DNA from: Thermodesulfovibrionales bacterium
GTDB lineage: Bacteria > Nitrospirota > Thermodesulfovibrionia > Thermodesulfovibrionales > SM23-35
Assembly: GCA_963715195.1 (NCBI GenBank)
Contig: CAVQRT010000031.1
Coordinates: 262,918-326,917 of the forward strand
DNA: 64,000 bases
Direction of reading: 5' to 3'
A program made the translations under genes and the position numbers. Every line of letters starts with the position of its first letter. Positions within the stretch are counted from its first letter, which is position 1. The notes under the pieces were generated by a model. That model saw only the letters and a program-made list of their open reading frames with translations, did not search any database and was not told where the DNA came from. Shown here piece by piece: positions 1 to 18,812 of the stretch.

Positions 1-459
1 CTGAAGGCAGGGATACCTGTGACATCAAGGTTTGGTGGAGTCCTCCAAATTAATTCCGACCCGGTTCGTTTTACCGCCCTGATCGCCTATGAAGGCTCTT
101 CACTCGACCCCCTTGAGGTATTCATCAAGAGCAAGATGACCGATATCATGGGTGCTGTCGGAAATCATTCGGGAAAGATACTCGCAAGTTTCAGGGAAAT
201 ACCAGTGGTGAGTATCGAGAAAGCCACACAATTGAGAGCAACACTCACGGACAAGGGCATTGGTGGTGTTCTGCTCATCGGGAACCCCAACCAGCCACTC
301 CTTGAGATGCCTGTCGGACTTGACAGGGCAGGTATGATCATCGTCGGTGGTCTTAATCCGATAGCAGCCCTTGAGGAAGCAGGTATACCAACAATAACCA
401 AGGCTATGTCCACGCTCTATAAATTTTCTGAACTTATTCCTTTTCAGGAACTCATCTAA
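1..459 (+). CDS. NrpR-type (DUF128) regulator, C-terminal part. The ORF runs off the left edge of the window.
   Basis: Frame 1 is open from base 1 (LKAGIPVTSRFGGVLQ...). By eye, roughly three quarters of residues are identical to the C-terminal domain of the ORF at 7784..8773. Shared blocks: YEGSSLDPLE, GKILASFREIPVVSIEKA, LLIGNPNQPLLEMPVGLDRAGM, VGGLNPIAALEEAGI. Confidence 0.7.
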   Translation: MKAGIPVTSRFGGVLQINSDPVRFTALIAYEGSSLDPLEVFIKSKMTDIMGAVGNHSGKILASFREIPVVSIEKATQLRATLTDKGIGGVLLIGNPNQPLLEMPVGLDRAGMIIVGGLNPIAALEEAGIPTITKAMSTLYKFSELIPFQELI

Positions 460-1055
460 TCCATATTCATAATTTAACCCCACGAAAATGCAGAGTCTAC
501 AGTATCTTATGCCCAGTCGATGAATGAAGAGGGCAAAAAGACATAAATTGATTTAGTCGGCAAACATTGCCGACCAGTTACCTCTCTGCAGTTTACTGTA
601 AAATCAAGCGGATCAAATCTAACAGGGTGATTACCGTTTAATTTATTTATATTTGTTAGGCAATAATTTTCATAATTCATCGATATGACAGGACTTGACA
701 TTTCTTTTTTTATTTGGTAGAAGTAAAGCAAAAGGTAACCGATTGCCTACGAAATGAACACTCTTTGGTCAGGCATAATTGTCCCGTGCAGTTTTTGTGA
801 AAAAATAACTGGCACACAAACGATCTCACGCCTTCTGATAATTCGATGAAAACTATATTGCTGCATGAAATCATTCGCTTTTCTCGTCAGATGATACATA
901 AAGGCTTCAAGGTCTTTTCTCTATCCAAAGCAATAATCCATCTCCATGGAAAAGAAGGAGGTGTTGAGATGTAAGGATTTTTTTGTCCATATGGTTCACC
1001 AATACTAAAGCAGGTCTAAAAAACATAATGAATACTGAAAAAGGAGGAGGAAAAG

Positions 1056-2621
1056 ATGAGTCTAAGCAAGCCAAATGCAAGTGCTGCAACAGTAACAACC
1101 ACCAGGGTGTCACCATCGCCGATGTCAGGATTGTGCGTCAACTGTGTCGATGGCTGCCCCGGATACTGCGAGGTTGGCAGGTCTGCACTTCGTGGGAGAG
1201 AAATTCTCTATCCGCAGCCTTTCGGGAAGGTCATTTCAGGGGCAGAGAAAGATTATCCGGTTGATTTCTCACATTTCAATATACATGGAACGTGTGTTGG
1301 AGCTGTGGGAAGTGAGGCAGATCCTGATAAGGCAACATTCCCTTCTGTCAGCGTAGAGACAGAAATAACCGGTCAAGGCACCAAAATCCCGATGAAAGTG
1401 CCATTTTTCACCGGTGCCCTTGGCTCGACCGAAATCGCCCGTGTCAACTGGGAGGGCACAGCTATTGGTGCAGCCATTAGCGGGTCTATTCTCGTATGCG
1501 GTGAAAATGTCTGTGGAATGGATTCAAAGGCTGAGATCAAGAATGGAAAAATCGCGAATTCGCCCGAGCTCGCGCGGCGAGTAAAGACCTACAAGGACTG
1601 GTATGACGGATACGGTACAATGCTTGTTCAGTTAAATGTTGAGGACACCCGCCTTGGGGTTGCCGAGTATGCTGTAGAAAAACTCGGCGTGGAGGGCATT
1701 GAGCTCAAATGGGGACAAGGAGCCAAATGTATTGGTGGTGAAGTGAAACTGCCGACATTGGATAGAGCGCTCCAATTGAAACAGAGAGGGTATATTGTTC
1801 TCCCTGATCCTGAAAATAAGTCAGTACAGGAAGCACATAAACTTGGAGGCGTTGCTGAATTCGAGAGACACTCACGTCTTGGAATGGTTGAAGAAGACTC
1901 ATTTATGAAAGAAGTCGAACGGGTGAGAAAGATTGGCGCAAAATATGTGACCCTTAAGACAGGGGCTTACAGGCCGGTGGATCTAGCCCGTGCAGTTAAG
2001 TATTCATCGATGGCGAAAATTGACCTCCTTACGGTGGATGGTGCCGGTGGAGGGACAGGAATGAGCCCGTGGAGAATGATGAACGAATGGGGCATCCCGA
2101 CCGTCTATCTTGAATGCCTTTTGTACAACTATCTGAAAAGGCTGAAGGAAAAGGGTGAGTTTGTCCCGTCCGTTGCCATCGCCGGTGGTATAGTTCTTGA
2201 AGACCAGATTTTCAAGGCACTGGCACTCGGCGCTCCTTTTGTGAAAGCGATCTGCATGGGGCGTTCAACCCTTACCGCGGGAATGGTCGGCAAGTCCCAG
2301 GGGAATAACATCGAAGAGGCTTTTGGAAAAGGCAAGGAATACGAAGAGGCCCTGATGAGGACGTTTAACGGTGCGGCAATGCTGAAAGACAAATTTGGGA
2401 AGGATCTCAAGAAGATTCCCCCGGCAGCGATAGGGATATACACTTACTACGACCGGCTTGCTGTGGGATTGAGACAGCTTATGGCAGGGGCACGTAAATT
2501 CGCCCTGAAGTATATTGAGAGAAGTGATCTCATGTCGATGACCCGCGAAGCAGCAGATGTGTCAGGTATCCCGTATTTGATGGATGTCGACATGAAAGAA
2601 GCAGAAAATATCTTAGGATAA
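1056..2621 (+). CDS. Glutamate synthase-related FMN-binding subunit (stand-alone GltB domain-2 type)
   Basis: 521 aa. A strong SD (AAAGGAGGAGG) precedes the ATG. N-terminal Cys cluster CVNCVDGCPGYC. Blocks FFTGALG, GIELKWGQGAK, TVDGAGGGTGMSP and IAGGI..ALALGA are typical of the Glu_synthase FMN barrel family. Confidence 0.8.
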   Translation: MSLSKPNASAATVTTTRVSPSPMSGLCVNCVDGCPGYCEVGRSALRGREILYPQPFGKVISGAEKDYPVDFSHFNIHGTCVGAVGSEADPDKATFPSVSVETEITGQGTKIPMKVPFFTGALGSTEIARVNWEGTAIGAAISGSILVCGENVCGMDSKAEIKNGKIANSPELARRVKTYKDWYDGYGTMLVQLNVEDTRLGVAEYAVEKLGVEGIELKWGQGAKCIGGEVKLPTLDRALQLKQRGYIVLPDPENKSVQEAHKLGGVAEFERHSRLGMVEEDSFMKEVERVRKIGAKYVTLKTGAYRPVDLARAVKYSSMAKIDLLTVDGAGGGTGMSPWRMMNEWGIPTVYLECLLYNYLKRLKEKGEFVPSVAIAGGIVLEDQIFKALALGAPFVKAICMGRSTLTAGMVGKSQGNNIEEAFGKGKEYEEALMRTFNGAAMLKDKFGKDLKKIPPAAIGIYTYYDRLAVGLRQLMAGARKFALKYIERSDLMSMTREAADVSGIPYLMDVDMKEAENILG

Positions 2622-2632
2622 GGAGGAAGATA

Positions 2633-2854
2633 ATGCTTAATTTAATTTGCTATAAGTTCTGTTCATCACCCTTCTGCATGGTTAGTTGTCCTGCAGGTGC
2701 AATAAGTATCTCAACAAAGGATAACAATGTTTATGCCGACACGAATAAATGCAACAGGTGTGGTATCTGTCGTGGCATGTGTTCTATTCTGAGTTTTGAT
2801 AAAAATCTGAGAAGGAGAAGGCCGTGGGTGCGTGAGGATTTCGGCAAAAAATAG
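2633..2854 (+). CDS. Small 4Fe-4S ferredoxin-domain protein
   Basis: 73 aa with SD AAGGAGG. Contains CNRCGICRGMC (CxxCxxCxxxC) and a second, irregular Cys cluster ending in CP (CYKFCSSPFCMVSCP). Confidence 0.6.
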   Translation: MLNLICYKFCSSPFCMVSCPAGAISISTKDNNVYADTNKCNRCGICRGMCSILSFDKNLRRRRPWVREDFGKK

Positions 2855-2928
2855 AAGGCATATAATCATTCTCCTCTCTTTCGTTGTACCCATCAGTCAA
2901 GGATGAGGAGTTAGAGGAAGTTACAGGT

Positions 2929-3408
2929 ATGGAAGAAGAACTTTTAGAACAAATCTTATCATCATACTGTGGTCAGAGAAATGAACTCGTTCCGATCCTT
3001 CAGGAGGTTCAGGAAAACCTTGGCTACCTTCCGGAGAAGGTGATGCTGGATATTGCGCGCTTTGTCGGCGCTCCCGAAAGTCATGTATATTCTGTCGCAT
3101 CTTTTTATGCGCAGTTCAGAACACTGCCACTCGGCAAGAGACGAGTTGCTGTCTGCAGAGGTACGGCATGTCATATCAGAGGAGCGCCTCAAGTCCTCCA
3201 TGCAATTGAGGACTCAATCCATCTGAAGGAAGGGGAAACGTCTGAGGACCTTGAGTACACGCTCGAGACGGTTGCATGTATTGGATGCTGTGCTCTGGCC
3301 CCCTGCGTAAGAGTCAATAAGGACGTTAGCGGAGATATGACGCCGGAAAAAGCCATGAAACTTTTCATGAGGAATGGCAAAAATGACGGAAGAAAAAGGA
3401 TTAAATAA
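2929..3408 (+). CDS. NuoE/HndA-type [2Fe-2S] thioredoxin-like subunit
   Basis: Cys ligand pattern CRGTAC...CIGCCALAPC and a conserved N-terminal helix region (ILQEVQENLGYLP). The ORF is open from a TTG at 2884. The ATG at 2929 is preferred. Confidence 0.8.
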   Translation: MEEELLEQILSSYCGQRNELVPILQEVQENLGYLPEKVMLDIARFVGAPESHVYSVASFYAQFRTLPLGKRRVAVCRGTACHIRGAPQVLHAIEDSIHLKEGETSEDLEYTLETVACIGCCALAPCVRVNKDVSGDMTPEKAMKLFMRNGKNDGRKRIK

Positions 3409-5020
3409 GCGGCATGTAATCCTGGTATGTCAGGGGACGGGCTGCGTTTCAGGAGGGTCAGAACATATCTTTTCAGCCCTGAAAGATGCTTTGGAAACAT
3501 CGGGGAATGGAAAAGACATCCTTGTAAAACGCACAGGCTGCCATGGTTTCTGCCAGCAAGGCCCTCTTGCTGTTGTCGAGCCACAAGGTATTTTTTACAC
3601 AAAAGTGACAAGAGAGGATATCCCTGAAATCTTGCAGTCTATTTCATTAGGAGGCAAACCGTTGGAGCGCCTCTTATATCGTGATACATTTACGGATAAA
3701 CCAATCCTCCATTACCATGATATTCCTTTCTACTGGAAACAGCAGAGAACCATATTGAAATACTGCGGCAGCATTGACCCTGAAGACATCGATGATTACA
3801 GCGAGGTCGGGGGATACAGAGCTCTGCAGAAGGCAATCTCTGCAATGTCTCCTGAAGACATTATTGGAGAAGTAAAGGAATCGGGACTGAGGGGACTTGG
3901 TGGCGCGGGTTTCCCCACCGGCCGCAAATGGGAATCCTGCCGAAATGTGCCCGGAGATATCAAGTACGTAATCTGTAATGCTGACGAAGGCGACCCGGGA
4001 GCGTTCCAGGACAGATCAGTTATGGAAGGCAACCCTCACTCGCTTATCGAAGGTATGATCATTGCAGCCTATGCAATAGGAGCTCAACGAGGTTTTGTTT
4101 ATGTGAGGGCAGAGTATCCCCTTGCTGTCAGCCGCCTAAAAATTGCTATCGACCAGGCACAGAAAGCAGGTTTTCTGGGTGACGACATTGTGGGCAGAGG
4201 TTTCAGTTTTCATATCGACATCTTTCAGGGAGCAGGGGCCTTCGTATGCGGTGAATCGACGGCTCTGGTGCGCTCAATCGAAGGAAAGAGGGGTATGCCC
4301 AAGCCAATGCCCCGTCCGAGGACTACCGAGGAAGGATTATGGAATAAACCGACCCTTCTTAATAATGTCAAAACATTTGCAAATATACCGTTGATCATCA
4401 TGAACGGTTCAGAATGGTTTTCGCAGAGAGGGACAGAGAAAAGCAAGGGCACAGCCGTATTTTCTCTCACGGGAAAGGTGATGAACTGCGGCCTTATAGA
4501 AGTGCCCATGGGAGAAACGTTGCGGAAAATCATATTCGATATCGGGGGAGGAGTTTTAGGCGGCAAGTCCCTGAAAGCAATTCAGACCGGAGGGCCATCG
4601 GGCGGGTGCCTGCCTGCACACATGATAGATATGCCTGTTGATTTCGACTCGCTCACAAAAGCAGGTTCGATCATGGGTTCCGGAGGGCTTGTCGTGATGG
4701 ATGAGGATACCTGCATGGTCGATGTTGCACGATACTTTCTTGATTTTAACCAGAGGGAATCCTGTGGCCAGTGCATCCCCTGCAGGATCGGTACCCGGCA
4801 GATGTTCGAGATCCTTGAAGAAATCACAAGAGGGAATGGACGGCCCGGGGATATCGACCTGCTCCTTGAATTAAGCAGCTCAATAAAACAGAGTTCGATA
4901 TGCGGACTCGGCAAGACAGCCCCAAATCCTGTTGTCACAACGATTCGGTATTTTCGGGATGAGTACGAGGCACACATTAAGGAGAAACGATGTCCTGCTG
5001 GTGTATGCAGGATGAATTGA
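3374..5020 (+). CDS. NuoF/HndC-type NADH-binding FMN/[4Fe-4S] subunit with an N-terminal thioredoxin-like [2Fe-2S] domain
   Basis: Motifs GLRGLGGAGFPTGRKW, CNADEGDPGAF and ESCGQCIPCR. N-terminal CQGTGC...CHGFCQQGP. The ATG at 3383 is an alternative start with better SD spacing. Confidence 0.9.
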   Translation: MAKMTEEKGLNKRHVILVCQGTGCVSGGSEHIFSALKDALETSGNGKDILVKRTGCHGFCQQGPLAVVEPQGIFYTKVTREDIPEILQSISLGGKPLERLLYRDTFTDKPILHYHDIPFYWKQQRTILKYCGSIDPEDIDDYSEVGGYRALQKAISAMSPEDIIGEVKESGLRGLGGAGFPTGRKWESCRNVPGDIKYVICNADEGDPGAFQDRSVMEGNPHSLIEGMIIAAYAIGAQRGFVYVRAEYPLAVSRLKIAIDQAQKAGFLGDDIVGRGFSFHIDIFQGAGAFVCGESTALVRSIEGKRGMPKPMPRPRTTEEGLWNKPTLLNNVKTFANIPLIIMNGSEWFSQRGTEKSKGTAVFSLTGKVMNCGLIEVPMGETLRKIIFDIGGGVLGGKSLKAIQTGGPSGGCLPAHMIDMPVDFDSLTKAGSIMGSGGLVVMDEDTCMVDVARYFLDFNQRESCGQCIPCRIGTRQMFEILEEITRGNGRPGDIDLLLELSSSIKQSSICGLGKTAPNPVVTTIRYFRDEYEAHIKEKRCPAGVCRMN

Positions 5021-5072
5021 ATGAGGCTAAGAAAGATGCTGTTGGCAGGAACAATAGAGAAAGGAGGTCGCA

Positions 5073-7760
5073 ATGGGTACGGTTACACTGAAGATTGATG
5101 ATCAGGAAATCCAAACCTGGCAAGGTGCCACTATCCTTGAAACGGCTCTGGAAAATAAAATCTATATACCACACCTCTGTTATCATCCGGACTTGAAACC
5201 TGCCGGAAGCTGCCGTATCTGCCTTGTGGAACTTGATAACGGCCGACTGGTGAATTCATGCAGGACCCCGGTAAAGGAAGGCATGGTCATAAGAACAAAG
5301 GGGTCTGAAGTCGATGCAGTGAGGCTGCCGGTTATTGAAATGATTATTGCCAATCATCATATGGACTGCAAGCATTGCCTAAAAAAAGGGCGGTGCCAAT
5401 TGCAGAAGATCATGGCATATATGAAGGTAGACAAAAAGAAAATTCAGGAGCGGATGAGACTGCCGAAAGCTGATATGCCACTTGATGAATCGAATCCTTT
5501 TTTTATCAGAGATCATAACAAATGTGTCATGTGCGGAATTTGTATACAGACCTGCAAAGAGATTGCAAAAGTTAATGCAATTGATTTTGCCGGCAGAGGG
5601 ATCCAGAGCAAAGTTGCTCCGTTTGCAGATAAGCCGATAACAGAATCCAGCTGCGTCTCATGCGGAGAGTGCGTAATCCGCTGCCCTGTTGGTGCGCTTG
5701 TTTTAAGGAATCCCAGGAAAGCTGTCACGTGGGTGAAATCTATCTGTCCATACTGCGGCGTCGGATGCGGCGTTCTTCTGGGCATCAAGGATAATGAAAT
5801 TGTTGAGGTGAGAGCTGATGCGTCGAGTGCGGTAAATTTCGGATGTCTTTGTGTAAAAGGTCGCTTCGGCATGGACTTTGTAAATTCACCGGACAGACTA
5901 AGCTACCCAATGGTAAGACAGGAGCGAGGAAAAGGAACAGACAAAGCAGCAGGTAAGGGGAGTAACAGCGGGTTTCTCGAGATTTCCTGGGACGAGGCAC
6001 TCGATCTTGTCGCAAAAAATTTGAAAAAATATAAGGGTGATGAATTTGCTCTCATAGCGTCAACTAAGTGCACTAATGAAGACAATTATGTGGCACAAAA
6101 GTTTGCAAGGGTCGTCATGGGGAGCAACAACATCGACACCTCAGCCAGACTCTACTATGGTCCGAACATCACTGCGTTGCGGAGTACGGGGAAATGTGTC
6201 GGGTTCAGTCCGCCAGACGACAGTGATGTCTTTCCGGTTCCGGCGAGACAAAATCCGGATCTGATCGAAAAGGCTGCCTGCATACTTGTTGCCGGGGCAA
6301 ATATTACCCAGTCACATCCGATATTAGGCCTGAAAATAAAGAAAGCGATTGATAACGGCGCGAAGCTTCTCGTCATAAGCCCGAATGAGACTGAACTCTG
6401 CCGAAGTGCTGAAAAATGCCTTAACCCCTATCCCGGTTCAGAACTGGCTCTTATTATGGGCATGTGCAATGTGATTGTCGAAGAGGAATTGTTTGACAGT
6501 GCATTCACAGGTATGTATTGCAATAATTTTGAAGAATTCAAAGAAGCACTCGGCGATTTTTCCCTTGGGAGGGTCGAAAGAATTACCGGGATTCCCCGTG
6601 ATATGGTCGAAGAGTCTGCCCGGACTTACGCGCTCAGCAAACCTGCTGCAATCTTCTGGGGTGCAGGAATCACCCAATATAGTCACGGGACAGACAGTGT
6701 TTATGCTCTCATAAATCTTGCAATTCTTACTGCAAATATCAAACATTCCTTTGCACTGAATCCCCTCTCAGAACAGAGCAATACCTTAGGGGCCTGCGAT
6801 ATGGGTTGCCTGCCTGACTATTATCCCTGCTATCAACCCGTTGGTTCGCCTGATATACAGGAACGATTTGAAGCTCTTTGGGAGTGTGCACTGAACCCGA
6901 AGCCCGGCCTTACCTTTACCGAAATAATAGATGCCACACTTGCAGGAAAAATCAAAGCACTCTATATTATTGGATCGAACCCGGCTGTGACAATCGCTCC
7001 ATCGAAAAAGGTAAAAGCTGCGTTGAAGAAAGCTAAATTTGTTGTTGTCCAGGACTTGTTCCTGAATGAGACAGCTCAATATGCCCACGTAGTCCTTCCG
7101 GCGGCAAGCTTTGCCGAAAAAACCGGTTCCTTTACGAATACAGGGGCTGAAACACAACCCATAGAAAAAGCACTTGAACCCTTTGGGAATTCAAGGCCGG
7201 ACTGGGAAATATTGTGCCGGCTTGCAGATAGAATGGACAGCAGAGGCTTTGCGTTTGCAAGCCCCGATGACATTCTGTCGGAGATGGTGGCGCTTATCCA
7301 GAACCTGCCTGAAACAATAGGAAAGTTTAGTTTGTTCCCGCTGCAATACAAAGCTCCGGCAGAGGCCGCAGACATGGATTATCCTCTTGTCCTGACGAGA
7401 GAGAGAGATTGTTACGCAGATGGCGTCATGTCTGAAAAAGCGCATGGCCTGAGAGAGCTTGGGTTGACAAACTATCTTCAGGTAAATCCAAAGGATGCCG
7501 CAGATTTTGGGATCGCTGACGGAGAAGCAGTTCGAATCGTTTCCCGGCACGGGTCTGCAGAGAGCAAGGCATTATTGACAGAATCAACTCCTGCAGGTCT
7601 CGCAGTCCTAAAAGAGGATCAAGAACACTTCAATTCGCTTTTGAATCCAGTTCTCGATGTAATATCAAGAACTCCTGAGATGAAAATGTGTTCAGTCAGA
7701 CTTGAAAAAGTTAAGGGGCACAAAAAGAGACAAAAGAATCTTGCAGTGAAATATGCATAG
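5073..7760 (+). CDS. FdhA/NuoG-like molybdopterin-oxidoreductase-fold subunit. It has an N-terminal 2Fe-2S site, a His/Cys cluster, two 4Fe-4S sites and an MopB-type domain, but lacks the canonical Sec/Cys-His active-site pair.
   Basis: 895 aa with SD GGAGG. Motifs CRICLVE, HHMDCKHCLKKGRCQLQ, CVMCGICIQTC, CVSCGECVIRCP and CPYCGVGCGV...CVKGRFG. The expected AR(V/L)[C/U]HGP block reads SARLYYGP. Confidence 0.85.
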   Translation: MGTVTLKIDDQEIQTWQGATILETALENKIYIPHLCYHPDLKPAGSCRICLVELDNGRLVNSCRTPVKEGMVIRTKGSEVDAVRLPVIEMIIANHHMDCKHCLKKGRCQLQKIMAYMKVDKKKIQERMRLPKADMPLDESNPFFIRDHNKCVMCGICIQTCKEIAKVNAIDFAGRGIQSKVAPFADKPITESSCVSCGECVIRCPVGALVLRNPRKAVTWVKSICPYCGVGCGVLLGIKDNEIVEVRADASSAVNFGCLCVKGRFGMDFVNSPDRLSYPMVRQERGKGTDKAAGKGSNSGFLEISWDEALDLVAKNLKKYKGDEFALIASTKCTNEDNYVAQKFARVVMGSNNIDTSARLYYGPNITALRSTGKCVGFSPPDDSDVFPVPARQNPDLIEKAACILVAGANITQSHPILGLKIKKAIDNGAKLLVISPNETELCRSAEKCLNPYPGSELALIMGMCNVIVEEELFDSAFTGMYCNNFEEFKEALGDFSLGRVERITGIPRDMVEESARTYALSKPAAIFWGAGITQYSHGTDSVYALINLAILTANIKHSFALNPLSEQSNTLGACDMGCLPDYYPCYQPVGSPDIQERFEALWECALNPKPGLTFTEIIDATLAGKIKALYIIGSNPAVTIAPSKKVKAALKKAKFVVVQDLFLNETAQYAHVVLPAASFAEKTGSFTNTGAETQPIEKALEPFGNSRPDWEILCRLADRMDSRGFAFASPDDILSEMVALIQNLPETIGKFSLFPLQYKAPAEAADMDYPLVLTRERDCYADGVMSEKAHGLRELGLTNYLQVNPKDAADFGIADGEAVRIVSRHGSAESKALLTESTPAGLAVLKEDQEHFNSLLNPVLDVISRTPEMKMCSVRLEKVKGHKKRQKNLAVKYA

Positions 7761-7783
7761 GAAAAGTCCCTTGAACAGGGTCC

Positions 7784-8773
7784 ATGTGTAGCTTTATGAA
7801 TAAAACCATGATTGCAATTCTGAAAATTCTGGAGCAGCATGAGGATACCATCCTTGGCTCAAGAGGGATTTCAAGACAATTGAAACAACATGGGATTGAA
7901 CTTACGGAGAGAACTGTGCGTTATCACCTGAGAATTCTCGATGAGCGGGGGTTTACCAAAGTATTTGGCAAGGAAGGAAGGATGATAACACAGAAAGGAA
8001 AAGTCGAGCTTTCGCATGCGTTAGTGTCTGACAGAATCGGTTTTGTTATCAGCAGGATCGAAAGTCTTTCGTATCTGACAAGCCTTGATCTCGAAAAAAA
8101 CGAAGGCGATATCATTCTCAATGTATCGTATTTTCCCGAAAAAAATCTGAAGGAAGCATTGCGGATAATGAGGCCGGTCTTTCTGTCGCCGTATGTTATG
8201 TCTGACAGGGTTATCATGAAAAGGGGAGGAGAGAAGATCGGAGATGTCCCGGTCCCGGATGAACAGGTTGGTTTTGGCACCGTCTGCAGTGTAACCATCA
8301 ACGGTATATTCCTCAAGTCAGGTATCCCTGTTATATCGAAGTTCGGTGGTGTCTTGCAGATAGAGGAAGCTGAACTGTCGAGATTTACTGCACTGATCAG
8401 TTACGAAGGTTCATCATTGGACCCGCTCGAAATATTTATCAAGAGCAGGATGACGGATGTCTTGGGTGCAGTTAGAAATCGCTCCGGGAAGATTCTCGCC
8501 AGTTTCAGAGAAATACCGGTGGTAAGCATCGAAAAAGCGGAAGAACTCTGGAACGAATTGAGAAAAAATGGCATACGGGGTATTTTGCTCATAGGCAATC
8601 CCAACCAGCCACTTCTCGAGATGCCTGTTGGACTTGACAGGGCAGGGATGGTGATCGTTGGCGGACTGAATCCAATTGCTGCACTTGAAGAAGCAGGGAT
8701 TGCGACGGTAACAAAAGCAATGTCCACCCTCCACAGGTTCTCTGACCTTGTGAAGTTTACGGAACTTCTCTAA
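7784..8773 (+). CDS. nrpR: NrpR-type transcriptional regulator (winged HTH plus one DUF128/NrpR domain)
   Basis: 329 aa. N-terminal TERTVRYHLRILDERGFT HTH block and C-terminal NrpR-domain blocks (GTVCSVTINGI, YEGSSLDPLE, ASFREIPV, GGLNPIAALEEAGI). Alternative starts lie at 7796 and 7808. Confidence 0.75.
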   Translation: MCSFMNKTMIAILKILEQHEDTILGSRGISRQLKQHGIELTERTVRYHLRILDERGFTKVFGKEGRMITQKGKVELSHALVSDRIGFVISRIESLSYLTSLDLEKNEGDIILNVSYFPEKNLKEALRIMRPVFLSPYVMSDRVIMKRGGEKIGDVPVPDEQVGFGTVCSVTINGIFLKSGIPVISKFGGVLQIEEAELSRFTALISYEGSSLDPLEIFIKSRMTDVLGAVRNRSGKILASFREIPVVSIEKAEELWNELRKNGIRGILLIGNPNQPLLEMPVGLDRAGMVIVGGLNPIAALEEAGIATVTKAMSTLHRFSDLVKFTELL

Positions 8774-9210
8774 GGCTCTTTGGACTTTTCCAGGAAGTCT
8801 AAAATATAATCACAGTACTCGTGATAATCTTTTAAACAATCTGTGATTGAAGAATAAATGCTGTTATAATCAACGACGTCATATTCATGAACCAGAATAT
8901 TCCTTGTTCCAACACTTCGGGCTATTCGCCGGGCAAATTCTTCCGGGCAAATACCGCAATCGGCAAGCCTCAGGAAAGTCTCAGCATAATCCAGCGGAGG
9001 ATTTGTATCTTTTGTTGATAGCTCTGAAATCAAATGATGATTTATATCAATAGCACGGTTGATAATTCTTTCCAGATACCGCTCAAGGGCTGCTTGTTTG
9101 ATGAAGTCACGTGTTATTTCTTGCAAAGAATATTTGGCTAAGTCAGCGAGATGAACGAGTTCATTCTGAATAAGGGTTATTTTCCTTAAAATAAAGTTTT
9201 CCCTTATCAT
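8770..9210 (-). CDS. hepT: HepT (DUF86) toxin of an MNT/HepT type VII toxin-antitoxin pair
   Basis: 146 aa with the Rx4HxY motif (RNILVHEY). It overlaps the upstream MNT gene by 4 nt. Confidence 0.8.
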   Translation of the reverse strand: MIRENFILRKITLIQNELVHLADLAKYSLQEITRDFIKQAALERYLERIINRAIDINHHLISELSTKDTNPPLDYAETFLRLADCGICPEEFARRIARSVGTRNILVHEYDVVDYNSIYSSITDCLKDYHEYCDYILDFLEKSKEP

Positions 9211-9656
9211 CTTGTCGCGGCTATCATTTCTTTTAATATCTTCTGCCGTTTTTTGATAAGAAATTTCTCAAGCGCAAAAAGAGGCTGAGAGTCGATATAT
9301 TCTTTGAAGGCAAAAGCTTTATGTGCAGCATATTCATCCTCGTCACCATAGAGTAAAATCCCTGATGAAATAACTTCGTATCTATGAAATGTATTAACCT
9401 TATTGAGATTTGTTAAATCTATTTTATTATCTGGGATACCGAACAGATCTGATAAAAAATGTAAGAGCTCAATATAATTGTTGAAATCAGCTATATTTCC
9501 TTTCTTTGTCGTTAATACTGCCACATCATAATCACTTTCTTCACGGACAGTTCCCATAGCCTGAGAGCCGAAAAGAACAAGAAATTTGATCCCATGTTCG
9601 ATTGCATATTGTTCAATATTTTCTTTATTGATTTCCATGAGTTTAATGTAGCACAT
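9207..9656 (-). CDS. mntA: MNT-type nucleotidyltransferase antitoxin
   Basis: GSxx...DxD nucleotidyltransferase signature (LVLFGSQAMGTVREESDYDVAVL). The ATG at 9638 (MEINKE...) is an alternative start. Confidence 0.8.
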   Translation of the reverse strand: MCYIKLMEINKENIEQYAIEHGIKFLVLFGSQAMGTVREESDYDVAVLTTKKGNIADFNNYIELLHFLSDLFGIPDNKIDLTNLNKVNTFHRYEVISSGILLYGDEDEYAAHKAFAFKEYIDSQPLFALEKFLIKKRQKILKEMIAATR

Positions 9657-9760
9657 AAGCGATGAAACAGCAAAACATACCCCGCAGCTTTACAACGGTT
9701 TGCATTTTTTATCAATAATTTACTATGCTTAATTATTAAACATTGGGAGGTAAGAAAGGC

Positions 9761-10108
9761 ATGACGATTACTGATAAGGCTGCTGAAAAGGCTCTGGCCA
9801 TCCTGACCGGCGAAGGCAAAGCGAACTGGGGGTTGCGGATATTTGTAGCAGGAGAAAGCTGCTGCGGCCCGTCATTCGGTCTCGATATGCAGGAAGAGCA
9901 GAGGCCTGATGATGAAGTTTTAGAGAAGAACGGTTTGAAGGTTTTCTTGGACAAACACACCATGTCAACGCTCACCGGAAGAGAGCTTGATTATTATGTC
10001 GGGGAAGAGGGTGAAGGGTTCGTCTTCACCGGGGGCGTCTCTACGTGCGGCACCGGAAGCTCTGCATGCGGCACCGGCGGTTCGGGCTGCAGCTCCTGCG
10101 GCGAGTAA
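9761..10108 (+). CDS. HesB/IscA-like Fe-S assembly accessory protein with a Cys/Gly-rich tail
   Basis: MTITDKAAEKA...RIFVAGESCCGPSFGL...F.F is the A-type-carrier fold pattern. The C-terminus is CGTGSSACGTGGSGCSSCGE. SD GGGAGG lies 10 nt upstream of the ATG at 9761. Confidence 0.65.
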   Translation: MTITDKAAEKALAILTGEGKANWGLRIFVAGESCCGPSFGLDMQEEQRPDDEVLEKNGLKVFLDKHTMSTLTGRELDYYVGEEGEGFVFTGGVSTCGTGSSACGTGGSGCSSCGE

Positions 10109-10117
10109 GACAGAGCG

Positions 10118-11089
10118 GTGTTCCCCGTTCATCGTCCGCGAAGACTCAGGAAAAATGATACGATCAGGAGAATGGTGAGGGAAACCTCACTGTCTCCTGA
10201 TCATTTTGTATATCCTCTTTTTGTTACCTCCGGCAAAGGCACACGGAAAGAGATATCCTCTATGCCCGGGTGTTATCAAGAGTCTATCGATACCGTAGCC
10301 AGGCATGCTAAGGAAGTCTTTGCGCTCGGCATTCCAGCGGTGATACTCTTCGGCATTCCCGAACACAAGGACGAGACCGGCTCGGGTGCATATGATGATC
10401 AGGGCGTCGTTCAGAAGGCTATCAGGTCAATAAAGAATAAGGTACCTGAATTGTTTGTCGCCACCGATGTTTGTTTGTGCGAATATACAAGCCACGGCCA
10501 CTGCGGAGTCATAAAAAATGGTGATGTGCAGAACGATCTAACCCTTGAATTGCTGGTGAAGGAAGCGGTTTCCCACGCGAAGGCCGGTGCTGATATGGTC
10601 GCTCCATCGGATATGATGGACGGAAGGGTCGGCACAATCCGCGCCGCCCTGGATGAAGAGGGATATGAAGAACTCCCGATTATGTCCTATGCCGCGAAAT
10701 ATGCATCGGCGTTTTACGGCCCGTTCAGAGATGCTGCCGAATCAACTCCCCAGTTCGGCGACAGGCGCTCATACCAGATGGATCCTGCCAACAGGAGAGA
10801 GGCCTTGAAGGAGGTGGCGCTTGATGTTCAGGAAGGTGCCGATATTGTTATGGTGAAACCCGCACTTGCATATCTTGACGTTATCTCAGATGTTAAGGAC
10901 GCTTTTGATGTCCCCGTGGCAGCCTACAATGTGAGCGGAGAATATTCACTCGTAAAAGCTGCCGGAAAACTCGGGTGGATAGATGAGCAGCGTGTCATGA
11001 TGGAGATACTTACCTCGATTAGGCGTGCAGGGGCTGATCTCATACTTACCTATTTTGCAAAAGAAGCCTCAAAAATTCTCAATAAATAA
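10118..11089 (+). CDS. hemB: Porphobilinogen synthase (delta-aminolevulinic acid dehydratase)
   Basis: The N-terminus [29 protein letters not shown], the zinc site [14 protein letters not shown], and MVKPA..YLD are all classic HemB blocks. GTG start. Confidence 0.95.
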
Positions 11090-11237
11090 TTATCTGCATC
11101 AAAGTTTTCCTTGACGCTTCTTTCCCCAGGACTTAGCCCAGATTATTCATATACTGTGGTACCTTGACAGGACACAATATTGTCGCTCATTCTCGGTCTT
11201 CGACCTCCGAGGAATTTTGCCTCATTATTATTGAATA

Positions 11238-11282
11238 CATAGTGTTTGAATATCTGCAAAATAAATCCGCTCAAACACTATG
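11238..11282. promoter_or_regulatory. Perfect 12-bp inverted repeat (CATAGTGTTTGA-N21-TCAAACACTATG) about 95 nt upstream of the octaheme cytochrome gene
   Basis: Read directly from the sequence. It lies in an intergenic region. Confidence 0.35.
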
Positions 11283-11377
11283 TCCTGTTAGTATCCAAGG
11301 AAATTTGTGAATTATATAGGTTAGAATGTAAGGGAAAATTTCATGCAATCATATTTATCATAGGAGGGAGGATTAAG

Positions 11378-12433
11378 ATGAAGAAGACGTCCATTATCCT
11401 GCTGTCAATGTTCGTTCTTATCGTGTCAGGGTTTCTTGCGCAGGGGTATTCTGAAGATGTCAAGAAGGAGGATTGTTTCTTCCTGTCGAGTCTTCATCAT
11501 ACGTCGAGGGGGATGGCTTACTGGTATGATAAAGCGAATGGCGGTCTTGAAACACTTACCGGCATACCGTATGCAAGTCCGAAACTCGATTGCACTAACT
11601 GTCACGTAAAGTCATGTGACGTCTGTCATAAGACGGTAACCGAAGATAAGTTGTCTTACTCTGTTAAAGCAGCGCAGAATCAGGATGTCTGTCTGAATTG
11701 CCATAAACGGGAAAAGACTCTCATGAAGATTGATAAAGATGCCAATCAGGTTGATGTCCACGTGGACAAGCAGATGCGATGCATGAATTGTCATAGAACG
11801 AGAGAAGTCCACGGTGACGGAAAGGAATATAATTCCATGAAGCAGCCTGGAGCGATCGATGCGAAATGCAAGAAGTGTCATCCGTCGGTTCCCGAAAGTA
11901 TCTCACATGAGATTCACGGGGATAGGTTGGAATGTAACGCATGTCACGTCCGTCATGTTGTAAGCTGTCAGAACTGTCATATTGAGACCATTATCAATGA
12001 GCGGAAGCGCGTAGATATCAAAGTCTCCGGATGGTTGTTTCTGATGAATTACGAAGGTAAGGTAACATCAGCAAATACCCAGACATTTGTGGTGCCGGGG
12101 AATAAGACCTTCATCTTATTTGCTCCACAGAACAGTCATTCGATCATGAGGGAGGGACGTAAGTGTGGTGACTGCCATGGTACTGATATCGTCAAACAGG
12201 CTCAGAATGGTAAGGTGAAGCTGACTTGGCTTGAAAACAATGAATTGAAGAATCTTAAGGGTGTAATCCCTGTCGTTGAGGGAGTGGAATATGATTGTGT
12301 ATATCAGGATTATAAAAACGGGAAATGGCTTCCCATCCAGAATCCACCATCACCTATGGTCCAATATAGCGGCTATGGCAAGCCCTTGACAAAGGATCAG
12401 TTGAAGAAACTGGCGCACCCGATGGGCAGGTAG
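11378..12433 (+). CDS. Exported octaheme c-type cytochrome
   Basis: Eight CxxCH motifs (CTNCH, CDVCH, CLNCH, CMNCH, CKKCH, CNACH, CQNCH, CGDCH). Signal peptide MKKTSIILLSMFVLIVSGFLAQG. SD GGAGGGAGG. Confidence 0.85.
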   Translation: MKKTSIILLSMFVLIVSGFLAQGYSEDVKKEDCFFLSSLHHTSRGMAYWYDKANGGLETLTGIPYASPKLDCTNCHVKSCDVCHKTVTEDKLSYSVKAAQNQDVCLNCHKREKTLMKIDKDANQVDVHVDKQMRCMNCHRTREVHGDGKEYNSMKQPGAIDAKCKKCHPSVPESISHEIHGDRLECNACHVRHVVSCQNCHIETIINERKRVDIKVSGWLFLMNYEGKVTSANTQTFVVPGNKTFILFAPQNSHSIMREGRKCGDCHGTDIVKQAQNGKVKLTWLENNELKNLKGVIPVVEGVEYDCVYQDYKNGKWLPIQNPPSPMVQYSGYGKPLTKDQLKKLAHPMGR

Positions 12434-16667: not shown

Positions 16668-17567
16668 ATGCGTAAGGAACAGGAATGTAAAACGAATGAA
16701 AGCAGTTCAAAGCGGAATCTCCCGACAAGGGAGGAGATTGAAGAGATGCGGGAAAAGCTTGCGCTGCAGGATAATATCGGGCGTATCAGCCACAAAGTTG
16801 TTGTACTGTCAGGTAAAGGGGGTGTCGGCAAGAGTACGGTTGCTACCAATATAGCAGTCGCCCTGTCTGTAAAGGGACAGAAGGTCGGACTGATGGATGT
16901 TGATATCCATGGTCCGAGTATTCCTAAAATGCTGGGACTTGAAGGAAACGTACTGAGAGGAACAGAAACAGGGCTTACGCCGATAGTTTATAGTGATAAT
17001 TTACGGGTGATGTCAATCGGGTTTATCCTGAGGAGTCAGAACGATGCAGTTATTTGGAGGGCACCACTGAAACACAAGCTCATAAGAGATTTTCTTACCG
17101 ATGTGAAATGGGGTGAGATTGATTATCTTATTATTGACTCTCCTCCAGGAACCGGAGACGAACCTCTTTCTGTTGCTCAGTTGATTGAAGATGCAGACGG
17201 AGCTGTCATTGTGACAACCCCTCAGGATGTAGCCCTTATAGATGTACGCAAGGCTATAACGTTTTGTCGTCAGGTAAACCTTCCGGTTTTGGGGGTTGTT
17301 GAGAATATGAGTGGCTTTGTTTGCCCTCATTGTGGTAAGACGGTGAATATATTTAAAACTGGTGGTGGTGAATCAATGGCATCAGATATGGGCGTGCCTT
17401 TTCTCGGACGTATACCACTGGAACCGAAGATTGTCGATGCAGGCGACAGCGGAAAACCGTATTTTGAGTACTACCGGGAGTCGGAAACCGCAAAGGCTTT
17501 CAATAGGGTAATAGAAACCCTGCTCTTGTTGAACTCTCAAAGGAAAACTGCTTCTTCAGGAGAGTGA
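16668..17567 (+). CDS. Mrp/NBP35 (ApbC) family Fe-S cluster carrier ATPase
   Basis: Deviant Walker A VLSGKGGVGKSTVATN, the CPHCG cluster-bridging motif and GRIPLEP. Confidence 0.9.
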   Translation: MRKEQECKTNESSSKRNLPTREEIEEMREKLALQDNIGRISHKVVVLSGKGGVGKSTVATNIAVALSVKGQKVGLMDVDIHGPSIPKMLGLEGNVLRGTETGLTPIVYSDNLRVMSIGFILRSQNDAVIWRAPLKHKLIRDFLTDVKWGEIDYLIIDSPPGTGDEPLSVAQLIEDADGAVIVTTPQDVALIDVRKAITFCRQVNLPVLGVVENMSGFVCPHCGKTVNIFKTGGGESMASDMGVPFLGRIPLEPKIVDAGDSGKPYFEYYRESETAKAFNRVIETLLLLNSQRKTASSGE

Positions 17568-17571
17568 ATCC

Positions 17572-17814
17572 ATGCCTGTTTATGAATATAAATGTGAAAC
17601 ATGCGAATATGTATTTGAAGTGAACCATGCAATGAACGAAAATCCGGCTGTGTTCTGTCCGGAGTGCAATGCAAACGCCATGAAGATTATTACCGGAGGA
17701 ACGGGGTTTATTATGAAAGGCTCTCATCATAAGGGTACCGGCATCCAGTGCGGAAGGGAACAGACATGCTGCGGAAAAAGCACCCCGTGTGAAACACGAC
17801 CGTGTGACAAATAA
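17572..17814 (+). CDS. FmdB-family zinc-ribbon protein
   Basis: MPVYEYKCETCEYVFE......CPEC is the typical CxxC...CxxC FmdB N-terminus. Confidence 0.8.
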   Translation: MPVYEYKCETCEYVFEVNHAMNENPAVFCPECNANAMKIITGGTGFIMKGSHHKGTGIQCGREQTCCGKSTPCETRPCDK

Positions 17815-17838
17815 GATGACAAGAGGAGGAATAATCCA

Positions 17839-18708
17839 TTGATCATATCGATTGCAAGCGGGAAAGGCGGCACCGGAAAGACCACTGTTGCGGTGAATCT
17901 TGCCTTATCGCTTCAGAATGTCCAGTTTCTGGACTGTGACGTGGAAGAACCGAATGCGCATCTTTTTCTGAAGCCAAAAATGCACTCGAAGAAAATTGCT
18001 ACTATCCCGGTACCCCAGGTTGATGAAACGCGATGTGATTTCTGTGGGAAATGCAGTGAGGTGTGCGCTTACAATGCGATTGCTGTTTTTCCGGGCAACG
18101 AAAACAGAATCGGGAGCGGTGTTCTGATTTTTCCCCATCTCTGCCATGGTTGCGGAGGCTGTACGCTCCTGTGTCCGCGTGGTGCCATCCATGAAGTGGA
18201 CAAGGAAATAGGCGTGATTGAAAAAGGCACATGCGGGGCTATGCATTTTGTTCACGGCAAATTACATATCGGGGAAATTATGTCACCGCCTTTAATCAGA
18301 CAGGTGAAGCTTTCTATTGACCGGTCACGCACAGTCATCATTGATGCTCCTCCTGGGACTTCCTGTCCTGTTATCGGCTCGGTAAAAGGGAGCGATTTCT
18401 GCATCCTCGTCACCGAGCCGACTCCTTTTGGATTGCATGACCTCATTCTGGCGGTTGAAGTGCTTGAGAAAATGGAGATTCCCTTCGGGGTTGTGATAAA
18501 CCGCTCTGATATCGGGGATAGCGGGGTGGACAATTTTTGCCGGGGCAGGAATATTCCTATCCTTATGCAGATTCCTTTCGACAAGGAGATTGCATTTCTC
18601 TATTCGAACGGCATCCCATTCGTCACGGAAAAGGAAGAGTACATTCAGAAATTTGAGAATATGTTTGAAGCTATTGAAGCAGGCATCAGCGGGAAGGCTG
18701 CACGATGA
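17839..18708 (+). CDS. MinD/ParA-superfamily P-loop ATPase with an inserted 2x[4Fe-4S] ferredoxin domain
   Basis: IASGKGGTGKTT, CDFCGKCSEVC and CHGCGGCTLLCP. TTG start with SD GAGGAGG. Confidence 0.85.
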   Translation: MIISIASGKGGTGKTTVAVNLALSLQNVQFLDCDVEEPNAHLFLKPKMHSKKIATIPVPQVDETRCDFCGKCSEVCAYNAIAVFPGNENRIGSGVLIFPHLCHGCGGCTLLCPRGAIHEVDKEIGVIEKGTCGAMHFVHGKLHIGEIMSPPLIRQVKLSIDRSRTVIIDAPPGTSCPVIGSVKGSDFCILVTEPTPFGLHDLILAVEVLEKMEIPFGVVINRSDIGDSGVDNFCRGRNIPILMQIPFDKEIAFLYSNGIPFVTEKEEYIQKFENMFEAIEAGISGKAAR

Positions 18709-18812
18709 ACGTTATCGACAGAATGCGCTTGCTTGATATTAAACCATATGTGCCGGATTTTGAACCGAGACAAGAAGTCGGAACCGGCTGGCTTGAGGGG
18801 ACATTACCATGA
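18705..18812 (+). CDS. 35-codon micro-ORF resembling the C-terminal TrmO/TsaA motif
   Basis: MNVIDRMRLLDIKPYVPDFEPRQEVGTGWLEGTLP. ATGA overlaps both flanking genes. Compare NRTPILDIKPL in the TrmO-like ORF at 26613..27020. Confidence 0.4.
   Translation: MNVIDRMRLLDIKPYVPDFEPRQEVGTGWLEGTLP

Follow-up and report, generated by a model that had tools for sequence, protein, structure and literature searches.

This work describes a five-gene operon near the left end of a 64,000-nucleotide stretch of DNA (the window) from a Thermodesulfovibrionales bacterium of the phylum Nitrospirota (assembly GCA_963715195.1, contig CAVQRT010000031.1, positions 262,918 to 326,917). Positions 1-8773 of the window hold seven co-directional open reading frames (ORFs): the five genes of the operon (1056-7760) and, on either side, a gene for an NrpR-type regulator (Table 1). 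Intergenic gaps range from -35 to +52 nucleotides (nt). The operon encodes a flavin mononucleotide (FMN) protein of 521 amino acids (aa) with a glutamate synthase (GltS)-type domain, a small ferredoxin (Fd), NuoE-like and NuoF-like subunits, and a large FdhA-like subunit. We propose, with a probability of about 0.5, that these products form a soluble multisubunit oxidoreductase that carries out an NADH-driven reductive amination of the glutamate synthase type and is repressed by NrpR.

Table 1. Features of the operon and its flanks (window coordinates)
Feature	Position	Strand	Basis or remark
nrpR1, 3' part	1..459	+	Start lies left of the window; PF01995, 176 bits
Sigma-70-like promoter candidate	695..723	+	TTGACA 695-700, spacer 17 nt, TAGAAG 718-723; read from sequence
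NrpR-box-like palindrome, candidate operator	734..747	.	GGTAACCGATTGCC; reverse strand GGCAATCGGTTACC
Block resembling the 3' end of a KaiC-HTH-cupin regulator gene, probably a gene remnant in the 5' leader	930..975	+	Alignment
GltS-type FMN/Fe-S subunit, 521 aa, proposed catalytic subunit	1056..2621	+	PF01645
8-Cys 2x[4Fe-4S] ferredoxin, 73 aa	2633..2854	+	Fer4_9/Fer4_7 matches below the Pfam 27-bit cutoff
NuoE/HydC-like [2Fe-2S] subunit	2884..3408	+	PF01257, 156 bits; NF005722, 143 bits
NuoF/HydB-like NADH-binding FMN subunit	3374..5020	+	N-terminal [2Fe-2S] thioredoxin-like domain, PF01512, PF10589
NuoG/HydA/FdhA-like subunit, 895 aa	5073..7760	+	Fer2_4, NADH-G_4Fe-4S_3, Fer4, Molybdop_Fe4S4, Molybdopterin, Molydop_binding
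nrpR2, 329 aa, winged helix-turn-helix (wHTH) + NRD1_2	7784..8773	+	PF01995, 289 bits; PF08461, 63 bits

The ORF list, Pfam, and NCBIfam agree with a preliminary description of this DNA on the five co-directional genes and their domains, and profile-based assignment of each ORF returned the Glu_synthase, NuoE, NuoF, molybdopterin oxidoreductase, and NrpR families. The NuoE-like protein more likely starts at ATG 2929 (orthologues, 157-159 aa). As also described, no GltD-type subunit (Pyr_redox_2/Fer4_20) occurs within the cluster. Other nuo genes (membrane/quinone module, complex I) are likewise missing from it, and scores against TIGR01973 and TIGR01959 (480 bits for the NuoF-like protein; cutoff, 558.65) lie below the cutoffs. 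Neither the operon nor the whole 64-kb window encodes an Ntn-type glutaminase (GATase_2) or a GXGXG domain, and no glnA, glnB, amt, or split archaeal-type glutamate synthase (GOGAT) gene was found elsewhere in the window. No tRNA or Rfam element was detected in the window, and an Rfam search of the leader to E ≤1 was also empty.

The left flank is known only from a second contig (L087; L numbers denote related loci), which is 99.8% identical to window positions 1-4376 (4,376 nt) and reaches 2 kb beyond the window start. Both of the paralogous regulators named in the preliminary description are present: NrpR1 is a full-length 324-aa protein in L087, with a wHTH and an NrpR regulatory domain (NRD), and is 75% identical to NrpR2 (76% over 153 aa for the fragment inside the window). 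Further left, a gene for a second GltB-like paralogue of at least 491 aa, 64% identical to the 521-aa protein, occupies L087:3-1478 (~590-2070 nt left of the window start) and is followed by a GC-rich hairpin before nrpR1. The local order is GltB-like2, NrpR1, promoter region, GltB-like1, Fd, NuoE, NuoF, FdhA-like, NrpR2. Because only 23 nt separate nrpR2 from the preceding gene, it is probably cotranscribed with the operon. Proteins identical to those of the window occur in a Nitrospirota population from sediment (NrpR2 is KPK43927.1 of "Nitrospira bacterium SM23_35"), and the closest relatives of the window proteins come from Thermodesulfovibrionales metagenome-assembled genomes (MAGs). Tandem paralogues of the FMN protein also occur in Ammonifex (L014) and in a Bacillota MAG (L084).

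Pfam assigns the FMN protein to the Glu_synthase family, as had been supposed: PF01645 (Glu_synthase) is its sole match there (52.6 bits; cutoff, 20.4), and the GltS signatures are kept. The match is partial, covering profile positions 187-302; in the relatives P0121 and P0239, it covers 57-309. No curated NCBIfam model matches the protein, and we found no curated family model, solved structure, or tested function for it. Its relatives occur in at least 586 stretches of a species-representative genome set and are 63-93% identical across Nitrospirota, Chloroflexota, Bacillota, Actinomycetota, Desulfobacterota, Aerophobetes, and others; 16 diverse members share a mean column identity of 78%. The family is tight, with 1,082 of 1.84 billion cluster representatives matching at E ≤1e-3 and 149 at 1e-30, so few that canonical GltB is not reached by phmmer.

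An AlphaFold (AF2) model of the FMN protein (pLDDT, 82.7; pTM, 0.85) folds as an FMN TIM barrel, (beta/alpha)8. Foldseek matched it to hydroxy-acid oxidases, IMPDH, and GltS at similar E-values, and the top query TM-scores (0.47-0.49) were those of GltS (7mfm_G, 1llw). Upon alignment by hhalign with the FMN domain of a canonical GltB (locus L077), the GltS signatures fall into register: P-FFTGALGS with RFCTGAMSHGS, GEN with GEGGE, KWGQGAK (ELKWGQGAK224) with KIAQGAKPGEGG (longer form, IKIAQGAKPGEGG; KIAQGAK), and DGAGGGTGMSP with DGGTGASP. The signature residues, among them the QGAK lysine and GGTGxSP, are invariant across the 16 family sequences, and we take K224 of QGAK to be the counterpart of Lys972 (Synechocystis numbering), the catalytic residue that binds 2-oxoglutarate. 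In place of the [3Fe-4S] site of GltS, the 16 sequences share an invariant N-terminal C27-x2-C30-x3-C34-x3-C38 motif. A 34%-identical relative, P0239, is a fusion of Fer4, FrhB_N, and FrhB_C with the GltS-type domain; since this relative is fused to an FrhB-type F420 module, interchangeable donor modules appear to serve the family. Cluster c32 (L063:15536-16954, L051, L072) is another uncharacterized family member, a 471-aa Fer4-plus-GltB-like paralogue that lacks the QGAKPG motif and adjoins an archaeal-type GltB FMN subunit, glnA, and glnB.

NADH, named as a possible electron donor in the preliminary description, is the donor predicted from the NuoE/NuoF-like pair. By sequence, the NuoF-like subunit clearly falls within the HydB/BfuB lineage of bifurcating enzymes, scoring 763 bits against 7t2r_B (the B subunit of the bifurcating A. 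mobile NiFe-hydrogenase) and 716-620 bits against other bifurcating HydB/NfnB proteins, compared with 402 for FdsB and ~370 for NuoF. It keeps the N-terminal thioredoxin-like [2Fe-2S] domain (N-terminal PF01257), the N3-type [4Fe-4S] site, and the CNADEGDPGAF motif. The protein ends ~75 residues after ESCGQCIPCR, at ...KRCPAGVCRMN, which is the precise start point of the C-terminal 2x[4Fe-4S] domain of HydB (the alignment stops at the last residues), and the observation that this domain is missing was correct. The 73-aa ferredoxin resembles FwdF-, DsrB-, and NrfC-type units. We considered whether it might be the split-off C-terminal domain of HydB; similarity does not support this (E 0.2-3), and the idea is kept as a functional possibility only. 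Loci with a short NuoF always have the small Fd gene in the interval from the FMN gene to nuoE. In L029, NuoE and a 618-aa NuoF with the ferredoxin domain come immediately after the FMN gene, and no separate Fd gene is present. A full-length BfuB with the two-cluster C-terminal domain also lies near the FMN protein in L035, L036, L044, and L065; Actinomycetota and Desulfobacterota are among the relatives that keep this domain beside the FMN protein.

The FdhA-like subunit finds its best PDB similarity in the alpha subunits of NAD-dependent formate dehydrogenases (FDHs; 7e5z and 6tg9, E ~1e-147 to 1e-143), and it scores 568 bits against TIGR01591, below the cutoff of 666. The formate-linked alternative of the preliminary description, in which this subunit would oxidize formate and pass the electrons to the FMN subunit or to NAD+, draws on that high similarity. 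The catalytic residues are nonetheless gone. The RLCHAS position of FDH reads SARLYYGPN in the window (Cys-His to Tyr-Tyr) and SD, CQ, CD, TH, SH, or CY in orthologues; PLRGQNN reads PLSEQSN (catalytic Arg to Ser), with F, W, or L in all ten orthologues. None of the ten retains the complete set (Cys/Sec-His plus Arg). The N-terminal Fe-S motifs are all conserved across the orthologues. The subunit is also the least conserved of the five (41-59% identity, versus 66-92% for the others), and in Dehalococcoidia, L020, L029, and L086, a short NuoG-type N-terminal Fe-S protein (211-225 aa; 154-225 aa in Dehalococcoidia) substitutes for it. Formate oxidation by this operon is thus hardly credible. 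Because the catalytic residues are lost, the Fe-S motifs are kept, and some lineages use a short Fe-S protein instead, we infer an electron-transfer and scaffold subunit, as in NuoG, NiFe-HydA, and NfnA, and not a formate dehydrogenase. A precedent is NfnA, a BfuA subunit with an inert Fdh/NuoG-like domain (PMC11829005).

Conservation of the operon was surveyed by tblastn with the window proteins and clustering of neighboring ORFs. The order FMN-Fd-NuoE-NuoF, followed by either the FdhA-like subunit or the short NuoG N-terminal protein, recurs in Nitrospirota, Dehalococcoidia, Actinomycetota, Bacillota, and a MAG labeled Thermoproteota. Recurrence next to nrpR, a check proposed in the preliminary description, extends over several phyla. 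The Nitrospirota loci L001-L008 read FMN-Fd-NuoE-NuoF-FdhA-like-NrpR, often with HemB next. In an Actinomycetota MAG (L085), the order is NrpR-FMN-Fd-NuoE-NuoF-FdhA-like, with glnA and a stand-alone GXGXG gene divergent from it; in a Bacillota MAG (L084), it is GlnA-FMN2-FMN-Fd-NuoE-NuoF-FdhA-like, behind two ANTAR regulators. Ammonifex (L014, Bacillota) has the full operon, including the FdhA-like subunit. The Dehalococcoidia loci L009-L017 read NrpR-HisF-FMN-Fd-NuoE-NuoF, ending, where it is present, in the short Fe-S protein. In many Desulfobacterota, the FMN protein stands alone or with a small Fd. The bracket of two NrpR genes, which the preliminary description had stressed, exists here and is peculiar to this genome: in relatives, the upstream position is taken by a KaiC-HTH-cupin regulator, and only the downstream nrpR is conserved (L001-L008, L086).

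The neighborhoods of these loci are rich in nitrogen genes. Among 51 related loci of at least 10 kb, 37 have at least one neighbor in nitrogen metabolism or regulation (NrpR, GAF-ANTAR, NtrC-type, GlnA, P-II, glutamate dehydrogenase [GDH], NadE, CarAB, PurF, PurLQ). In L001 and L002, glnA, glnB, amt, and a split archaeal-type GOGAT lie within 10 kb. The Desulfobacterota FMN loci neighbor a GAF-ANTAR regulator, NrpR, GDH, GlnA, NtrC-type regulators, NadE, CarAB, PurF, or an AOR/HdrA/NuoEF cluster. In several of these loci (among them L035, L037, L044, L050, L056, L060, L065, and L075), the FMN protein and small Fd are followed by an AOR-family tungsten enzyme and then by a 124-aa Fd, HdrA-like, MvhD-like, and HdrC-like proteins, NuoE, and a full-length BfuB, a cluster like those of the Bam/Wor-Bfu kind. 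In Dehalococcoidia (L009-L017), hisF lies between nrpR and the FMN gene inside the operon under the NrpR box, with PdxT, purL, and purQ nearby; glutamine-consuming amidotransferase genes cluster with the FMN enzyme there. HisF and PdxT were considered as an ammonia-delivery pair and dismissed as ordinary biosynthetic genes, since HisF passes its equivalog cutoff and PdxT its own cutoff. Two Nitrospirota loci (L001:7239-7739 and L002:55-588, minus strand) encode a stand-alone class I glutamine amidotransferase of 166-177 aa that scores below all equivalog cutoffs; it lies between glnB and glnA, divergent from the operon, and is a conceivable glutaminase partner.

NrpR is the 2-oxoglutarate-sensing repressor of nif and glnA genes in methanogens; to our knowledge, bacterial NrpR regulons have hardly been studied. 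The promoter candidate in the window aligns with TTGACA-N17-TTAAAG-type elements in L001, L003, L005, and L007. Consensus promoter and terminator scans stayed at background level, and the former passed over the element at 695-723, the -10 hexamer of which lacks the final T. Downstream of it, the palindrome at 734-747 is the single match in 64 kb to the pattern GGNAAWCRGYTDCC (0.07 expected). This pattern was defined from eight sites, a set that excludes those of L005-L008 and L019, and it is found in 13 of 22 NrpR-containing loci versus 2 of 64 others, with the loci phylogenetically nonindependent. The module GGTAACCGTTTGCC (GGTAGCCGTTTGCC in L008) occurs in L001, L003, L005, L006, L007, and L008. 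Of seven Dehalococcoidia loci, six have a TTGACA box and a -10-like element, together with the palindrome GGnAAACnGTTTCC, ahead of the nrpR-led operon. Some of these palindromes match GGAA-N6-TTCC exactly, and exact or one-mismatch copies of that motif occur in the Dehalococcoidia operons; the palindromes directly follow the -10 element, compared with a distance of ~10 nt in the window. One-mismatch forms of GGNAAWCRGYTDCC lie upstream of the operon in Desulfobacterota (L040, L061, L071), in the Actinomycetota locus L085, and in L086.

The palindrome signal emerged only after close relatives had been aligned and the region upstream of each operon's first gene had been considered. A generic inverted-repeat search of 440-1060 found nothing, and short palindromes counted across phyla in the region upstream of the FMN gene showed no signal either. 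Another candidate operator, TCCAT-N4-ATGGA (937-950), was rejected; its count is at chance level, and in relatives the block is coding sequence of the upstream regulator. That block (930-975) combines TCCAT-N4-ATGGA with a strong GGAGGTG, the regulator gene itself being undetectable in the window, and a remnant-like block of the same kind follows the promoter/operator module of L005. Predicted control of the operon by NrpR through the palindrome at 734-747 has good computational support, and the operon is probably switched on by nitrogen shortage. The nitrogen regulation supposed in the preliminary description is a prediction from two kinds of data, the conserved NrpR-box-like palindrome and the nitrogen neighbors of the related loci.

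In the mechanism that we propose, NADH would pass a hydride to FMN in the NuoF/HydB-like subunit, the partner of the NuoE/HydC-like [2Fe-2S] subunit; homology is the basis for the cofactor sites. Electrons may then run along the [2Fe-2S]/[4Fe-4S] chain of the NuoG/FdhA-like subunit, with its molybdopterin-type domain presumably a dead scaffold, and reach the four-Cys cluster at the N terminus of the 521-aa subunit, and its FMN, by way of the 8-Cys ferredoxin. There, as the motifs and gene context suggest, 2-iminoglutarate formed from 2-oxoglutarate and ammonia would be reduced to L-glutamate. The nitrogen could come from free ammonia or from ammonia released by a glutaminase whose gene lies elsewhere. 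Transcription would begin from the 695-723 element; NrpR bound to the palindrome would block it at low 2-oxoglutarate, and rising 2-oxoglutarate would bring derepression. The couple 2-oxoglutarate + NH4+/glutamate has a potential of ~-0.13 V, compared with -0.32 V for NADH and ~-0.45 V for ferredoxin. Because NADH can drive the amination unaided, a simple nonbifurcating enzyme would suffice; the free energy left over could in principle support NADH-driven reduction of ferredoxin as well.

Several results weigh against this proposal. The evidence that the five proteins associate is their synteny. Neither a glutaminase nor an ammonia-tunnel domain is encoded in the operon, and the relatives have a separate archaeal-type split GOGAT near it, so that a second GOGAT needs a rationale. 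With the FMN protein as query, neither sequence nor profile searches of the PDB reached a GltS structure, and de novo TIM barrels were the only hits; tblastn with canonical GltB did not recover the protein; the hhalign alignment has low probability; and in Foldseek the hydroxy-acid oxidases score as well as GltS. The [3Fe-4S] motif C-x5-C-x4-C is absent, with Cys400 the only conserved cysteine of that region in the 16 sequences, and Arg992 has no position-exact equivalent (Arg237 is an approximate one, 3 residues earlier). Exact GGAA-N6-TTCC sites, for which the preliminary description had proposed a search, number zero in 460-1055 and 7761-7783, where only the degenerate variant at 734-747 was found; the four in the 64-kb window are at chance level. 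The candidate operator also lies ~310 nt from the start codon of the FMN gene. Given the distance of the FMN protein from canonical GltB and the lack of a glutaminase gene in the window, "glutamate synthase" is a provisional name.

Much of this evidence would also fit a different substrate. The 521-aa protein might be an FMN/Fe-S reductase for some other nitrogen-related substrate, for example a different 2-oxo or imino acid, or a glutamate-oxidizing enzyme, with the NADH module serving that reaction. The partial Pfam match, the distance from GltS structures, a Foldseek result in which hydroxy-acid oxidases and lactate monooxygenase at least equal GltS, the divergent Fe-S site, the lack of a glutaminase or GXGXG partner in the operon, and the separate archaeal-type GOGAT of the same organisms all point that way, as does the breadth of the Glu_synthase family, which takes in enzymes other than GOGAT, N-methylglutamate synthase subunit C among them (PMC6237917). 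We nonetheless regard this as unlikely, given that the GltS-specific motifs (the QGAK lysine and GGTGxSP) are invariant, the neighbors of the FMN gene are overwhelmingly glutamine or glutamate centered, and a stand-alone GXGXG gene adjoins the operon in L085; no counterpart of the hydroxy-acid-oxidase catalytic residues was seen in the alignments made, which did not amount to a systematic search. A further possibility is that the genes encode two separate, coregulated units, namely, a ferredoxin-dependent GltS-like enzyme (FMN protein and Fd) and a stand-alone NADH:ferredoxin or NADH:acceptor oxidoreductase (NuoE, NuoF, and NuoG-like). Most Desulfobacterota loci encode the FMN protein by itself or accompanied just by the small Fd; because they lack the NuoEF module and have other neighbors instead (GAF-ANTAR, GDH, AOR-like clusters), the family can evidently work without an adjacent NuoEF. 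The contiguous order, though, persists with tight or overlapping spacing across at least four phyla, and the FrhB-type fusion in P0239 shows direct coupling of this FMN family to a dedicated donor, which makes two independent units distinctly improbable.

The preliminary description had set electron bifurcation aside, a decision that holds insofar as the C-terminal domain is missing and needs qualifying insofar as the subunit is of HydB/BfuB lineage and some relatives keep the domain. In a Bfu-type bifurcating or confurcating enzyme, NADH oxidation would be coupled to both the exergonic GltS-type reduction and ferredoxin reduction, or NADH and reduced ferredoxin would jointly feed the reductase, with the 8-Cys Fd replacing the B3/B4 clusters of HydB. 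The bit scores of the NuoF-like subunit, its retained N-terminal domain and CNADEGDPGAF motif, the full-length BfuB placed directly after the FMN protein in L029, the inert BfuA precedent, and the potentials given above, by which NADH-driven bifurcation is feasible, are all compatible with such an enzyme. Set against them, the NuoF-like subunit fails the BfuB domain definition of PMC9304861, and loss of B3/B4 is consequential: in work cited in PMC11829005, their deletion abolished bifurcation in T. kivui HydABC. The small Fd is FwdF/NrfC-like rather than HydB-like, known Bfu enzymes use a mid- or low-potential couple as the third substrate and not a high-potential acceptor, and NADH alone is energetically enough. 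On balance, bifurcation or confurcation seems rather unlikely. The most specific version is a new bifurcating class with a HydBC-type core, in which the strongly exergonic glutamate-synthase-type reduction would draw NADH electrons uphill to ferredoxin and convert 2 NADH + Fd(ox) + 2-oxoglutarate + N donor into 2 NAD+ + Fd(red) + glutamate, the 73-aa Fd acting in trans as B3/B4; it is in our judgment quite unlikely. The reading that we prefer remains the nonbifurcating, NADH-driven, glutamate-synthase-type enzyme.

Beyond nrpR2, the minus strand of the window (8770-9656) carries a toxin-antitoxin pair, consisting of a HepT-like RNase and an MNT nucleotidyltransferase, between nrpR2 and an IscA-like gene. 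The pair is absent from the near-identical contigs L089 and L090, in which the Fe-S_biosyn gene comes immediately after nrpR2, and it is therefore a strain-variable insertion. The IscA-like Fe-S assembly gene, hemB, and a gene for a multiheme cytochrome c with many CxxCH motifs follow at 9743-12433. Beyond these, the window encodes Fur, a radical-SAM protein, and several P-loop ATPases that are of NUBPL/Mrp type and contain Fer4 (16668-19657).

The operon brings known parts, namely, a GltS-family synthase domain, an NADH module of the HydABC/Bfu lineage, and NrpR, into an undescribed combination. Literature searches found no description of a gene cluster with this combination, in line with the preliminary description, nor is it mentioned in GapMind 2026, the Bfu catalogue, or the Losey 2020 paper. 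We know of no enzyme of this makeup that has been studied biochemically. The FMN protein is widespread and uncharacterized; in sulfate reducers, syntrophs, Dehalococcoidia, and Nitrospirota, it lies beside genes central to nitrogen assimilation. Should the enzyme be a glutamate synthase that depends on NADH, it would account for the reduction of 2-oxoglutarate in many strict anaerobes that have no GltD-type subunit and would add a fourth donor class (NuoEF/HydBC type) to the NADPH-dependent, ferredoxin-dependent, and predicted F420-dependent enzymes. The conserved palindrome provides a concrete candidate operator for a bacterial NrpR. The occurrence of a HydB-lineage subunit with and without its ferredoxin domain beside one catalytic partner constitutes a natural experiment on what bifurcation requires, and if the bifurcating alternative were true, energy-limited anaerobes would recover low-potential reductant from nitrogen assimilation.

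Among known systems, the closest by subunit set are the bifurcating enzymes and the formate dehydrogenases. BfuABC/HydABC enzymes (7t2r, T. kivui HydABC, NfnABC; PMC9304861, PMC11829005) have the same three-subunit core, comprising a NuoE-like C1 cluster, a NuoF-like FMN with the N3-type cluster and N-terminal thioredoxin-like domain, and a NuoG-like Fe-S chain, and the Type 2 Bfu enzymes share the logic of attaching a separate catalytic subunit in modular fashion. Unlike them, the operon has a B subunit without the C-terminal B3/B4 clusters and a presumed third substrate that is a high-potential couple. Because the C-terminal 2x[4Fe-4S] (B3/B4) domain is part of the BfuB definition (PMC9304861), the complex is not a Bfu enzyme as published, and a GltS-type catalytic partner is not among the Bfu types catalogued in the main text and supplement of PMC9304861. 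FdsABG and Fdh1AB (6tga, 7e5z) share the subunit set and the fusion of a NuoG-like N terminus to a molybdopterin domain. In the window, however, the catalytic Cys/Sec, His, and Arg are all replaced, so this is not an FDH, and the NuoF-like subunit is nearer HydB than FdsB.

On the regulatory side, the methanogen NrpR has the same wHTH and NrpR regulatory domain, and its gene likewise lies beside nitrogen-assimilation genes. The candidate operators share the methanogen GG-AA...TT-CC type, its 14-bp span, and its position at or just after the -10 region. The systems differ in that the hosts here are bacteria, the NRD occurs as a single unit per protein, two paralogues are present in this genome, and the operator candidate is degenerate (GGTAAC-N2-(A/T)TTGCC versus GGAA-N6-TTCC).

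The catalytic subunit compares most directly with the synthase domain of GltS/GOGAT, including the split archaeal type. Both are PF01645 proteins with an FMN (beta/alpha)8 barrel, and both keep the catalytic-Lys (QGAK) and FMN-phosphate-loop (DG-GGTG-SP) motifs and nitrogen-assimilation neighborhoods. Unlike GltS, the window protein is remote in sequence and has an N-terminal C-x2-C-x3-C-x3-C motif instead of the C-x5-C-x4-C [3Fe-4S] site; unlike a complete GOGAT, the operon has no Ntn glutaminase, central or GXGXG domain, or GltD partner, and the genomes of the window's relatives additionally carry a conventional archaeal-type GOGAT. Since the glutaminase, GXGXG domain, and [3Fe-4S] site are missing, the operon does not encode a complete GOGAT. 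In concept, it may most resemble the F420-dependent glutamate synthases (FGltS) of methanogens and anaerobic methanotrophic archaea (ANME), which are predicted and unpurified (PMC3448663, PMC3087415, PMC9012536). These share with it the idea of a GltS-type subunit served by an alternative, dedicated electron-input module, and the 34%-identical relative P0239 carries just such a Fer4 and FrhB module. In the bacterial operon, unlike FGltS, the donor module would be the NuoE/NuoF/NuoG-like set and the predicted donor NADH.

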